Assembly (NCBI GenBank): GCA_964461325.1
Contig: CAYWTW010000001.1
Location: forward strand, 1-29,568
Reading direction: 5' to 3'
DNA from: an uncultured Candidatus Saccharibacteria bacterium
Lineage (GTDB): Bacteria > Patescibacteriota > Minisyncoccia > Phycocordibacterales > JACOZG01
Length of the DNA: 29,568 nt
Positions within the stretch are counted from its first letter, which is position 1, and every line of letters starts with the position of its first letter. The position numbers were made by a program, and so were the translations under genes. The notes beneath the pieces were generated by a model. That model ran no database searches. It worked only from the letters and a program-made list of their open reading frames with translations, and had not been told where the DNA came from. Of this stretch, positions 27,093 to 29,568 are shown piece by piece.

Positions 27093-27653
27093 ATGCTCCT
27101 GACTGACCGTTTGATCGCCCAGACGATTCTGCCGCTTTTGCCCGGCCGGGTCGTCCCCAACCACGTGACGGTTTTCCGTTTCGTTCTTATCCCACCGGTC
27201 ATTCTGCTGCTCTACTTTGATTACCGTCTCGTTGGATTGATTCTTTTTGTTATCGCCGCCTTCTCCGACGCCGTTGATGGGGCGCTCGCGCGGACGCGTC
27301 AGCAGATTACGCAATGGGGGACGCTCTACGACCCTCTGGCCGACAAATTGCTCGTTAGCTCCGTCGTCGCGCTCGTTGTCACGCAGATGATTGGCTGGCG
27401 TCTGGCCGTGGCCATCATCGGGATGGAGTTTTTAATAATTTTAGGCGCCCTGTATTATCAGAAAAAAGAGGGCCGGATTGTCTCGGCTCATCCGGCGGCC
27501 AAGTTCAAGATGGTTTGCCAATCCGTGGGCGTCTCTCTGCTTTTGCTCCATCTCGTTTGGCCGGTGGCGGGACTCCTCGCCGCGGCCTATTATCTGCTCT
27601 GGGCCGCGGTGTTCCTCGCGCTCATTAGTTTTTTCATTTACCAGTCAATTTGA
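27093..27653 (+). CDS. CDP-alcohol phosphatidyltransferase (PgsA-like)
   Basis: PNHVTVFR, SDAVDGALAR...GTLYDPLADK signature, AKFKMVCQ. Confidence 0.92.
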   Translation: MLLTDRLIAQTILPLLPGRVVPNHVTVFRFVLIPPVILLLYFDYRLVGLILFVIAAFSDAVDGALARTRQQITQWGTLYDPLADKLLVSSVVALVVTQMIGWRLAVAIIGMEFLIILGALYYQKKEGRIVSAHPAAKFKMVCQSVGVSLLLLHLVWPVAGLLAAAYYLLWAAVFLALISFFIYQSI

Positions 27654-27674
27654 TGGTAAAAGTTGCGTCGGTGC

Positions 27675-27693
27675 CAGATAAAGCGGTATAAAG
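27675..27693 (+). repeat. 19-bp direct repeat copy 1 (CAGATAAAGCGGTATAAAG); GIY-YIG 3' remnant
   Basis: Identical to 27973-27991. TTGCGT also sits 12 nt upstream of both copies (27663 and 27961). Confidence 0.9.
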
Positions 27694-27700
27694 AGGTGAT

Positions 27701-27735
27701 GGAAGGGTGGCAGAGAGGTCTAATGCGCACGCTTG
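27701..27735 (+). pseudogene. tRNA-Ser-like 5' half (acceptor 5' strand, D arm, 5' anticodon stem)
   Basis: 29/35 identical to the 5' part of the tRNA at 28030. It is interrupted in the anticodon loop, and no complementary 3' half (GCGTG...CCCTTCC) was noticed downstream. Confidence 0.75.
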
Positions 27736-27770
27736 ACCACCGCCTACGGCGGGGTCCCGCCAAAGGCGGG
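27735..27770. repeat. twin GC-rich hairpins (GACC-A-CCGCC-TAC-GGCGG-GGTC; CCCGCC-AAA-GGCGGG)
   Basis: Direct base-pairing inspection; both have 3-nt loops and share a CCGCC/GGCGG stem. Confidence 0.85.
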
Positions 27771-27786
27771 AAAAGCTTAGAACGCG

Positions 27787-28044
27787 TTTATTGTCTACAT
27801 TATTCAAAGTCAAACCACCGGCCGGTTTTATGTTGGTATGACCAGCGATTTGACGGAAAGATTGATTCACCACAACAGTGGGGCCAATCGCTCGACTCGT
27901 AATCGTGGACCATGGCGAGTTGTTTATAAAGAGATTCTATCAACCAAACGAGAGGCTTGGTTGCGTGAACGACAGATAAAGCGGTATAAAGGTGGTGAGG
28001 CGTTCAAGCGGTTGATCGCCGACAAACGTGGAGGGTTCGCATAG
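27787..28044 (+). CDS. small GIY-YIG nuclease; no canonical start codon upstream of the GIY motif
   Basis: FIVYIIQSQTTGRFYVGMTSDLTERLIHHNSG...TKREAWLRERQIKRYKG. In-frame TAG at 27778-27780, then AAC GCG TTT. The track's ATG at 27838 lies after the VYI/YVG motifs. The stop codon lies inside the tRNA. Confidence 0.85.
   Translation, partial: FIVYIIQSQTTGRFYVGMTSDLTERLIHHNSGANRSTRNRGPWRVVYKEILSTKREAWLRERQIKRYKGGEAFKRLIADKRGGFA
27973..27991 (+). repeat. 19-bp direct repeat copy 2 (inside the GIY-YIG 3' end)
   Basis: Identical to 27675-27693. Confidence 0.9.
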
Positions 28045-28114
28045 AGGTCTAGTGCGCTCGCTTGGAAAGCGAGTATGCTGCAAGGCATCAAGGGTTCGAA
28101 TCCCTTACCCTCCG
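28030..28114 (+). tRNA. tRNA-Ser(GGA)
   Basis: Acceptor GGAGGGT/ACCCTCC, discriminator G, anticodon arm CTCGC-TTGGAAA-GCGAG, long variable arm, T arm AAGGG-TTCGAAT-CCCTT; CCA not encoded. Confidence 0.96.
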
Positions 28115-29568
28115 CATTGACAACCTGTTAGTTTTGATGACCCACTTGCTCTAGTTTGAGCTGTGACCCACAAAGCTAATATAGGTTGATGAAATATTAT
28201 TTTTCTGGTCGCTTAAATTAAGCAGAGATAATTACCCTGAACGGGAGTTCGTAGGTTTCCAGCAAATAGTGATCCGTAATACCTAGGAGCTTCTTCTGCT
28301 CGTCACTCATTCGAGCCTTGGATACACCTGGCTGAACTAGGTGTACGTTCATTCGGAACTCCATAACTTCGCTCATGCGACTTATCTTCTCAAGAGTCTT
28401 TTGATCACCTTTTTCAAAACGATCAACTTCCTGTCCGTTGTGTTTAAGTGGGTTCCTTCGGAGTAAGTGAGTAAAAAGTTTCTCGGCACTTTCTTTCCAG
28501 TACGCACTTCTTTGAACCTGTCCGCACACGACATAGAGATCTCCTATTCTCGCTCCTGGATTTGCATCACTTGAGAATTTGCAGTGATACAAATCAACTT
28601 CAATGTACTTATGAGTTCCATCGACAGTCCTGATAGCAACAACATCTGCCACCTCTCCTGAGCCGTCATCGTTAAAGACAACCTCGTAATCTTCAGCGAT
28701 GAGCTTCTGTATGACTTTGTATTGAATGGAATCCTGACTCTTATTCACTCCTTGTGATTCAGCTTGGATGTCAGTACCTTCCCAGTCCCAGACTTCAACC
28801 TTGTTGTCGGCAATCGCAGGAGGAGTCTCGTTCAACTCAATATATGTATTGCCTTCTAGAGAAGAGCCGTCAGCAAACCAGAAGACAGGAGGATTGTCGT
28901 TAAAAAACTCAACAAGCGGATTCTCTCCGCGATAAAGTATCTTTGCTTCATCACGAGTAGTCTTGGAGAATGTATAGGTCTTGTTGTCGCCATTTTCCTG
29001 AAGAGTCAGCTCGAAATCTGCGGTGATATCTCCGGACTTTATCGAGAACTCTAAATCACCGGCATCACTAACGTTCTTGAGCTCGATATCAGCAAAGTGA
29101 AGCGGTACTCTTGTGCCGCCAATCATGAACACAAAATCAGTCTCCGGTTGGAGATAAAACATCTCTGGCCAATCAATGCGCACTGGAACTTTGGCTGGCC
29201 GTACGCCGATTATTTTCGGCCTGAGCGTACCCTTCAAAACCTCATCAGGGTCAATGGTGTCATCGAGAACCTTTGTTCCAATATAATCGAACCAACGCAC
29301 CAGCGCGTCAATGTTGATTACTCGACGAGACCATATTCTTCCCTTACGAGAACATCCTATTGAAGTTCTTGCACCTCTCTCGTAGCCCGCGCCGAACATA
29401 TTAGACTTGATTGATGTCCGTTTCAGTAGCTCATCCAAGCCTGCCTCCACATCAGATCCTGCTTGCATTGTGTAACGGATCAGTCTACCGATCTGCTTTC
29501 TGAGACCGACATTGTAAAGCTTTAATCTTTTTACGCCCGCAAGAGATCGGAATACAGCATCGTCCTGT
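28115..29568. mobile_element. probable left edge of a tRNA-anchored genomic island
   Basis: Composition shifts abruptly just after tRNA-Ser, and a foreign-looking nuclease gene converges on the tRNA. No integrase is seen in the window. Confidence 0.45.
28218..29567 (-). CDS. C-terminal part of a large protein with a PD-(D/E)XK-like nuclease domain (probable helicase-nuclease fusion); 5' end beyond the window
   Basis: The frame stays open from the window edge (QDDAVFRSLAGVKRLKLYNVGLRKQIGRLIRYT-MQAG...). Motif FNDDGSGEVADVV...LYHCKFS...DLYVVCGQ. Two sampled 60-nt lines are 25/60 GC each, below sampled housekeeping lines (30/60 and 42/60). The helicase half is inferred, not seen. Confidence 0.7.
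   Translation of the reverse strand, partial: QDDAVFRSLAGVKRLKLYNVGLRKQIGRLIRYTMQAGSDVEAGLDELLKRTSIKSNMFGAGYERGARTSIGCSRKGRIWSRRVINIDALVRWFDYIGTKVLDDTIDPDEVLKGTLRPKIIGVRPAKVPVRIDWPEMFYLQPETDFVFMIGGTRVPLHFADIELKNVSDAGDLEFSIKSGDITADFELTLQENGDNKTYTFSKTTRDEAKILYRGENPLVEFFNDNPPVFWFADGSSLEGNTYIELNETPPAIADNKVEVWDWEGTDIQAESQGVNKSQDSIQYKVIQKLIAEDYEVVFNDDGSGEVADVVAIRTVDGTHKYIEVDLYHCKFSSDANPGARIGDLYVVCGQVQRSAYWKESAEKLFTHLLRRNPLKHNGQEVDRFEKGDQKTLEKISRMSEVMEFRMNVHLVQPGVSKARMSDEQKKLLGITDHYLLETYELPFRVIISA

Follow-up and report, generated by a model that had tools for sequence, protein, structure and literature searches.

A small GIY-YIG nuclease and GC hairpins nested in a duplicated tRNA-Ser gene: a candidate selfish cassette of tRNA loci

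Why should a gene for a very small nuclease lie between a broken and an intact copy of the same tRNA gene, and end inside the intact one? The 29,568-nt stretch analysed here (the window) is contig C1 of the 583-kb, 46-contig genome (G000), of the candidate phyla radiation (CPR) type, of an uncultured Candidatus Saccharibacteria bacterium. The question is raised by the 376 bp that separate a CDP-alcohol phosphatidyltransferase gene from a tRNA-Ser(GGA) gene, in which a remnant of a GIY-YIG nuclease gene is followed by an orphan 5′ part of a tRNA-Ser, a pair of GC hairpins and a full-length GIY-YIG frame. We consider it likely that these 376 bp go back to a small selfish cassette, present here as one old copy or as two in tandem, and already decayed in part. 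The cassette would spread by recombination inside tRNA sequences, probably set off by its nuclease. Topologically located inside a tRNA gene, it combines a single-domain GIY-YIG gene with a short leader, a twin GC hairpin and a partial duplicate of the host tRNA. Because the copy on the cassette side completes a working tRNA, the host would lose nothing. Genome comparisons, presented below, establish what appears to be a dispensable, patchily distributed and horizontally spreading unit, with an intact tRNA on one side, a partial duplicate of that tRNA on the other and a conserved hairpin where the duplicate breaks off.

Filled and empty tRNA loci in this genome and its relatives

In G001, a genome of the same genus, a 31-nt spacer separates the flanking gene (75% identical at the protein level) from a tRNA-Ser(GGA) with two differences, where the window has 376 bp, and no small GIY-YIG gene was found in that genome. 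The phosphatidyltransferase gene also precedes tRNA-Ser(GGA) with no GIY-YIG gene between them in G007, G013, G027 and G029, as in G001. An empty allele with exactly the spacer of G001 was present at a depth of 18 in metagenome run X2, from a sludge community, alongside the filled allele; it belongs to a G001-like organism and is thus not a within-species polymorphism. G001 carries single tRNA genes without a cassette at its Trp, Ser-TGA and Ile-TAT loci as well, and at Trp precisely the 298-nt cassette is missing, so that four conserved sites differ between these relatives by presence or absence of the unit, all four being empty in G001. Empty sites in relatives, as expected by the original prediction that this was a mobile unit, were therefore found both in G001 and in a metagenome that also holds the filled allele. 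A scan of metagenomes with the flanking gene returned only relatives of about 45% identity, none with a GIY-YIG gene at this place and none close enough to date the window copy against its flanks.

Two further observations concern the same tRNA gene. In G007, the syntenic tRNA-Ser(GGA) is followed after about 100 nt by a different small GIY-YIG gene (C9:8602-8992), which indicates that this tRNA was colonised from its other side in a relative. In G013 (locus L041, 2040-2060), the stop codon TAG of the phosphatidyltransferase gene overlaps the first base of tRNA-Ser(GGA); in genomes as compact as these, overlaps between open reading frames (ORFs) and tRNAs are thus found outside cassettes too.

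All six small GIY-YIG genes of the 583-kb genome lie at most 150 nt from one of its 26 tRNA or tmRNA genes (chance P about 6e-10). Four of the frames run 9-22 nt into a tRNA gene of the same orientation (Ser-GGA, Ser-TGA, Ile-TAT and Trp), and at each of these loci an orphan tRNA 5′ part is found upstream of the nuclease gene with one or two GC hairpins directly after it. Within 700 nt, partial tRNA duplicates accompany 4/4 of the tRNAs abutted by a GIY-YIG gene and 0/21 of the other tRNAs. At the Trp and Ser-TGA loci the orphan holds the native, promoter-side position. The paralogues in this genome are 30-35% identical to the window protein, and close relatives carry between 0 and 8 copies per genome.

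The tRNA-Ile(TAT) locus (C11:6269-6692, L004) has a more complex arrangement. The native tRNA, recognisable by an acceptor stem as in G001, is left only as two overlapping fragments, both interrupted by the palindrome TCCGCCGCGGCGGA. These fragments enclose the nuclease gene together with a complete tRNA-Ile(TAT) whose acceptor stem is different, and the T arm of the right-hand fragment looks chimeric. This layout would be the expected trace of recombination within tRNA sequence with a foreign donor. The host tRNA-Ile(TAT) seems to have been replaced by the cassette-borne one, suggesting that cassettes can swap a host tRNA for a foreign one. The 14-nt palindrome of this cassette was also detected at C3:16815.

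Small GIY-YIG genes next to tRNA or tmRNA genes also occur in other arrangements. At C4:1083-1503 (L002) one converges on tRNA-His and is flanked by a 15-nt inverted repeat (CCCACACCTATGTTT) that includes the tRNA 3′ end, a third layout. Five related genomes (L001, L010, L015, L017 and L018) have a small GIY-YIG gene in the orientation of the tmRNA gene and 140-306 nt downstream of it; this conserved, tmRNA-linked variant has no detectable partial duplicate.

The cassette family across phyla

The comparison was extended to 61 relative loci from many named phyla and to a protein tree of 98 sequences. Relatives of the nuclease were found in several CPR groups, Omnitrophota, Ignavibacteria, Zixibacteria, Acidobacteria, Bacteroidota, Lentisphaerae, a Synechococcus and a gammaproteobacterial metagenome-assembled genome (MAG), and the window protein reaches up to 64% identity with proteins of other named phyla, against 30-35% with its own paralogues, which speaks for horizontal spread. 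Of the GIY-YIG genes in the 61 loci, about two thirds directly adjoin a tRNA, whose strand they share in all cases, and a 5′ or 3′ orphan lies at their other end. Together with the six genes of G000, this agrees with the enrichment beside tRNA genes that the original prediction proposed to look for. Two mirror layouts were distinguished, one running from 5′ orphan through nuclease gene to intact tRNA and the other from intact tRNA through nuclease gene to 3′ orphan. One edge of the duplicated part coincides with a tRNA end and the other falls in the D, anticodon, variable or T loop. In the second layout a GC hairpin abuts the orphan or replaces one of its arms; an identical 16-nt hairpin, TCCCGGCTCGCCGGGA, stands in for the anticodon arm both in a 3′ orphan of tRNA-Val from a Chthonomonas MAG (L064, 2238-2257) and in one of tRNA-Ala from an Acidobacteria MAG (L065, 2244-2264).

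The closest relatives of the window cassette (in Saccharimonas, Ignavibacteria, Zixibacteria and the gammaproteobacterial MAG) are located at tRNA-Ser(GGA) and carry the same 35-nt twin-hairpin module. This module is conserved in 13 cassettes from CPR bacteria, Ignavibacteria, Zixibacteria and the gammaproteobacterial MAG, and at six of its 11 base pairs the pairing is kept by changes on both sides. It directly abuts the break in the orphan tRNA, and is found at the same place as in the window among the nearest relatives or, in three cases, in the D loop; after it the relatives resume with AAAGCGTG, about 10 nt ahead of the ATG. Over orphan plus module the window matches a Saccharimonas cassette at 87.5% identity, although the nuclease genes of the two are too diverged for detection by blastn. 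The layout first noted in the window recurs in genomes of many phyla, with a hairpin that abuts the orphan break and is conserved through compensatory changes.

The window protein falls in a well-supported clade whose members belong mostly to Ser, Tyr and similar cassettes. Over the tree of 98 sequences the tRNA isotype changes 30 times, against at least 39 times in shuffles, and the layout 10 times, against at least 15; since related rows of the tree share labels, this comparison is descriptive only. In this descriptive sense, each nuclease clade tends to have its own tRNA types and layouts. Some of the relatives form tandem or decayed arrays, for example at L099, L066 and L098.

Where the flanks were syntenic, cassettes tended to be more similar than their surroundings. 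Identities were 94% for the cassette and 75% for the flanks in the pair L050/L051, and 98% and 84% in the pair L051/L052; judged by these values, the cassette is apparently younger than its flanks in two of the three syntenic pairs examined. The cassettes L072 and L084 are 92% identical in unrelated flanks, and other pairs too have only the cassette in common. No homologue was detected in the phage and plasmid collections at an E-value of 1e-6, and a phage or plasmid vehicle was rejected on this ground.

Anatomy of the window copy

The features of the window copy and of its surroundings are collected in Table 1.

Table 1 Features at and around the tRNA-Ser(GGA) locus of the window.
Feature	Position	Strand	Basis or remark
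CDP-alcohol phosphatidyltransferase gene (left flank)	27093-27653	+	Pfam PF01066, E 7e-29; stop TGA 27651-27653
GIY-YIG 3′-end remnant, 38 nt, would encode ..QIKRYK..	27662-27699	+	Repeat of 27960-27991
Orphan tRNA-Ser 5′ part, positions 1 to about 35, ending in the anticodon	27701-27736	+	Match to the intact tRNA
Twin-hairpin module in the anticodon loop of the orphan	27737-27771	+	Hairpin search; conservation in cassettes
Hairpin 1, CCGCC-TAC-GGCGG	27740-27752	+	
Hairpin 2, TCCCGCC-AAA-GGCGGGA	27755-27771	+	
Resumed anticodon-loop and stem letters AAAGC, then short leader	27772-27789	+	In-frame stop TAG 27778-27780
Single-domain GIY-YIG nuclease frame, 84 residues counted from ATT	27790-28044	+	PF01541, 54.8 bits
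Intact tRNA-Ser(GGA), native type	28030-28115	+	ARAGORN; Rfam tRNA, 56.3 bits

The remnant shares a 19-nt exact repeat with the complete frame (27675-27693 and 27973-27991), which is part of a 32-nt repeat of 84% identity (27662-27693 and 27960-27991), and lacks about 31 nt ahead of the orphan tRNA part. The orphan (27701-27735) is identical to the intact tRNA at 29 of positions 1-35 (83% when 27700-27735 is aligned with 28029-28064) and equally, at 29/35, to the tRNA-Ser(GGA) of a Saccharimonas cassette, so that it looks like a mosaic of native and foreign tRNA; its acceptor strand pairs incompletely with the native 3′ strand. The reading frame of the nuclease is open from 27781 to 28044 and its stop codon TAG (28042-28044) falls 15 nt inside tRNA-Ser(GGA), whose first 15 nt therefore double as the codons for the last residues of the nuclease and its stop. 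The main components named by the original prediction, namely a nuclease 3′-end remnant with a 19-bp exact repeat, a tRNA-Ser-like 5′ half broken in its anticodon loop by twin CCGCC/GGCGG hairpins, and an intact tRNA-Ser(GGA) that contains the nuclease stop, were all recovered, the last with both ARAGORN and Rfam.

The layout is no artefact of assembly: two runs from separate studies yielded independent Logan contigs that agree with 27400-27879/27908 and 27860-28115 apart from 0-1 differences, although no single contig spans the whole unit. A strain variant within the cassette was observed at position 27817, where run X2 has C in place of A, which changes Thr to Pro in the nuclease frame.

The predicted protein matches PF01541 over residues 4-68 with 54.8 bits (cut-off 22.6; E 1.2e-14). 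Residues Y3, Y14, G16, R24, H28, E60 and K64 are invariant among 28 aligned relatives, and the catalytic Tyr, Tyr and Arg and the metal-binding Glu are thus kept; the motif RERQIKRYKGG is the most conserved of the nuclease clade. An AlphaFold model (pLDDT 87.6) has the order E-E-H-E-H-H, a three-stranded sheet packed by helices in a single domain, and its nearest folds in the PDB are the UPF0213 proteins 1zg2 and 1ywl, Slx1, the I-TevI core and the N-domain of UvrC; 1zg2 is also matched at the sequence level (E 1.4e-6). The protein would be a bare catalytic core, as one domain spans nearly all of its 84 residues; neither Pfam nor the model revealed a separate DNA-binding domain, and there is no room for one.

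Several other types of element were considered for the unit. An Rfam E-value scan of 27400-28400 gave solely the contiguous tRNA, and a tRNA intron was rejected on the grounds that no intron family was matched and the working tRNA is contiguous. No integrase ORF was detected in the 0.38-kb unit, and the duplicated tRNA segment is a 5′ part, unlike the direct repeat of a 3′ part left by integrase-borne islands. An element with an HUH/Y1 transposase (REP/RAYT, IS200/IS605) was rejected because the sole protein of the unit is the GIY-YIG nuclease. The Rfam and Pfam searches, the structural model and the list of ORFs agree in this respect with the original prediction of a stand-alone nuclease, devoid of intron, DNA-binding domain, integrase and transposase. 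A promoter in the 19-nt repeat was also rejected: a strict sigma-70 scan was negative, and TTGCGT-18-TATAAA fails its criteria, although a dual role is possible. The repeat encodes QIKRYK, from the most conserved motif of the clade, and coding alone accounts for its conservation.

Hairpins of the type CCGCC-N2-5-GGCGG are about 12 times over-represented in the genome (40 against 3.2 expected), most of them far from GIY-YIG genes, and the twin module occurs once. Hairpin 2 has a 6-bp stem, TCCCGC/GCGGGA, in common with the Neisseria NTS, a hairpin repeat of the Ssn nucleases. The published degenerate motif for the Ssn repeats, SRM, had no match in the window and four in the genome, none near a GIY-YIG gene. 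Elsewhere in the genome, four hairpins with GNRA-like loops lie inside 600 nt (C9:18289-18880), a candidate structured RNA.

On the other side of the tRNA, a block of lower GC content (28116-29568; 0.447 against 0.534 for the window) begins directly after the 3′ end of tRNA-Ser and contains a minus-strand ORF of at least 449 residues with no Pfam match. Contigs from four public runs diverge exactly at 28115; the 3′ end of tRNA-Ser is thus the junction of a variable island, separate from the cassette on the 5′ side.

Proposed mechanism, competing explanations and known systems

In the proposed mechanism, the conserved tRNA sequence on both sides of the cassette would serve as portable homology for homologous recombination between genomes. 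As homology of this kind is valid in nearly any genome, the cassette could be copied into an empty tRNA gene, where the duplicated tRNA part would keep one tRNA intact. The nuclease would cut or nick DNA at a tRNA loop or just 5′ of the hairpin and so promote recombination. At the tRNA-Ser(GGA) locus, reinvasion or unequal crossover would have added a second cassette to a first, most of which would later have been lost by deletion; its 3′ end and the adjoining tRNA part, now the orphan, would have stayed behind. Of the repeated insertion with tandem scars that had been predicted, the remnant is there, in the form of the 32-nt repeat; repeated insertion itself is one of two readings of it, the other being duplication followed by deletion. 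The broader claim, that a stand-alone unit of nuclease and hairpins settles at tRNA genes while one working tRNA is kept, is supported by the empty sites, the adjacency of all six genes, the 61 loci and the conserved hairpin at the orphan break, from which we infer insertion.

A number of observations weigh against a mobile selfish cassette, or complicate it. The nuclease frame of the window has no ATG, GTG or TTG at its N-terminus, where ATT at 27790 is the sole option; the first ATG, at 27838, would cost the first beta strand, and nine of ten close relatives examined have an ATG at the homologous place. The gene of 85 codons announced by the original prediction is consequently better described as a GIY-YIG frame of 84 residues that has no canonical start. 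With its ATG gone and its orphan diverged, this copy seems to be decaying. About a third of the relatives have no detectable tRNA within 2 kb, and in the third syntenic pair (L050/L052) the cassette, with 79% identity, is barely more conserved than the flanks, with 76%. The taxon labels of MAGs may mislead, since L050 and L051 differ in phylum name yet have flanks that are 75% identical. The paralogues of this genome are old and diverged and so give no sign of recent transposition within it. In filled alleles the intact tRNA and the native upstream junction persist, and only the loop of the orphan is disrupted; a filled allele keeps all sub-sequences of the empty one up to about 36 nt, which leaves classical homing immunity unexplained. 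Lastly, the intact tRNA is native and the orphan diverged, the opposite of the simplest model in which the cassette brings the new half, and later gene conversion or a deleted tandem is required.

Among the competing explanations, an Ssn-type system fares best, although we hold it to be unlikely. It would be a hairpin-guided nuclease of single-stranded DNA (ssDNA), domesticated or selfish, with the GC hairpins as dispersed cognate repeats that land in single-stranded loops of tRNA genes; the tRNA duplications would be secondary, selected to replace copies killed by a hairpin, and the gene itself would not be homing. Ssn proteins are single-domain GIY-YIG nucleases of about 94 residues whose genes are flanked by hairpin repeats, and they cut only ssDNA, a few nucleotides 5′ of the hairpin (PMC11893778). 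The stem shared with NTS, the dispersed excess of GC hairpins and the presence of the module in different loops (D or anticodon) in different cassettes are all consistent with such a system. Against it, SRM has no counterpart at the cassette, the twin module is not dispersed in the genome, and partial tRNA duplicates accompany a tRNA only where a GIY-YIG gene is present; moreover, the nuclease gene, module and orphan move together across phyla, as whole cassettes that appear younger than their flanks.

We regard as much less probable that the nuclease is a host-beneficial gene co-transcribed with tRNAs, acting for example in defence or in the repair and maintenance of highly transcribed tRNA loci, with the orphans as by-products of local recombination. 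A gene that is always on the strand of the tRNA and usually a few nucleotides away, an orphan in promoter-proximal position at Trp and Ser-TGA and the tmRNA synteny in five related genomes could all be accommodated by it; what counts against it is the variation from 0 to 8 copies among close relatives, with none in G001, the existence of decayed and tandem copies, including the window copy with its missing start codon, and a similarity that is greater across phyla than among the paralogues of one genome. Least credible of all is an ordinary local rearrangement (slippage duplication and deletion, or the scar of an integrase island) to which the nuclease is unrelated, because, even though the tRNA 3′ end is a variable island junction (lower GC after 28115, where four runs continue differently) and unequal crossover could give the tandem remnant, the duplicated 5′ halves lie on the side away from the island, the 0.38-kb unit holds no integrase and the layout recurs with a homologous nuclease and a hairpin in dozens of unrelated genomes, so that this explanation survives only for the local history of the remnant.

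With a selfish cassette as the preferred reading, we give even chances to the further proposal that such cassettes form a distinct, undescribed class of mobile element, about 0.3 kb in size, in which a hairpin-guided GIY-YIG nuclease would home into tRNA loops across phyla and carry the displaced tRNA segment, sometimes a whole replacement tRNA, as repair patch and portable homology, and would in this way enter the most conserved genes, neither as an intron nor with an integrase, and leave them functional. If this is true, tRNA genes can house, apart from introns and integrase-borne islands, a third type of guest: a nuclease cassette of 0.3 kb that spares the tRNA by duplicating part of it and appears to cross phyla using the tRNA as homology. 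It would give a natural role, outside Neisseria, to part of the large family of tiny, Ssn-like GIY-YIG nucleases, explain their expansion in ultra-small CPR genomes, account for many annotated fragments of broken tRNAs and draw attention to nuclease-hairpin pairs of new single-strand specificity.

The searchable literature yielded no account of GIY-YIG genes that lie within duplicated bacterial tRNA genes. The claim that no characterised system of this layout is known accordingly holds for the nested tRNA arrangement; it does not hold for the pairing of nuclease and hairpins, as related Ssn nucleases with hairpin repeats have been characterised (PMC11893778). Several known systems resemble the cassette in part. 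The tRNA gene cluster of phage T4 contains SegB, one of the free-standing GIY-YIG homing endonucleases of T-even phages (PMC2330249). Like the cassette nuclease, it is encoded by a lone GIY-YIG gene beside tRNA genes, present or absent between relatives, and genes of its type are thought to spread by break-induced copying with co-conversion of flanks, to which the spread of the cassette may be likened; unlike it, SegB-type genes act between co-infecting phages and have neither a partial tRNA duplication nor a hairpin module. Seg proteins are also more than twice as long and have a separate DNA-binding region. In fungal mitochondria, free-standing endonuclease ORFs insert at gene ends with a partial duplicate of the gene end, and GC-rich double-hairpin elements, known from the mitochondrial DNA of Allomyces, occur at the borders of mobile ORFs. 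There too the host gene is preserved by the replacement part that is carried along, whereas the targets are organellar protein-coding genes and the nuclease families and sizes differ. REP/RAYT and IS200/IS605 systems likewise combine a small gene with GC hairpins, perhaps read as ssDNA, and short GC hairpins are over-represented in the present genome; in place of an HUH/Y1 transposase, however, the cassette has a hydrolytic GIY-YIG protein, which can cut and would not be expected to join strands.

The closest parallel is with the Ssn nucleases themselves, of which SsnA from Neisseria meningitidis (Chenal et al. 2025) binds an oriented hairpin on ssDNA and cuts a few nucleotides 5′ of it, an activity abolished by mutation of Y6, Y17 or E64 (PMC11893778). 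Membership in the family was defined by a single domain in fewer than 150 residues together with either cd10448 as top CDD match or a blastp E-value below 1e-10 to SsnA (CAX49033.1) over 75% of the length, and the word tRNA occurs 0 times in that paper (PMC11893778). The window nuclease and its relatives share with Ssn proteins the single GIY-YIG domain of about 85-95 residues, well below 150, without a DNA-binding domain, the spacing of the invariant Tyr, Tyr and Glu, and the company of an oriented GC hairpin, whose stem in hairpin 2 is common to NTS. The module begins right at the break of the orphan, an anatomy compatible with a cut 5′ of the hairpin; an Ssn-style cut would fall at the junction of orphan and module, exactly where the tRNA is broken. 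The differences are that SRM is unmatched, that the hairpin of the window is a twin module on one side only, and that the unit as a whole is enclosed by an intact tRNA and a partial tRNA copy. From these comparisons, the cassette may best be viewed as a variant of the Ssn-like nuclease/hairpin systems or of the free-standing homing endonuclease genes.

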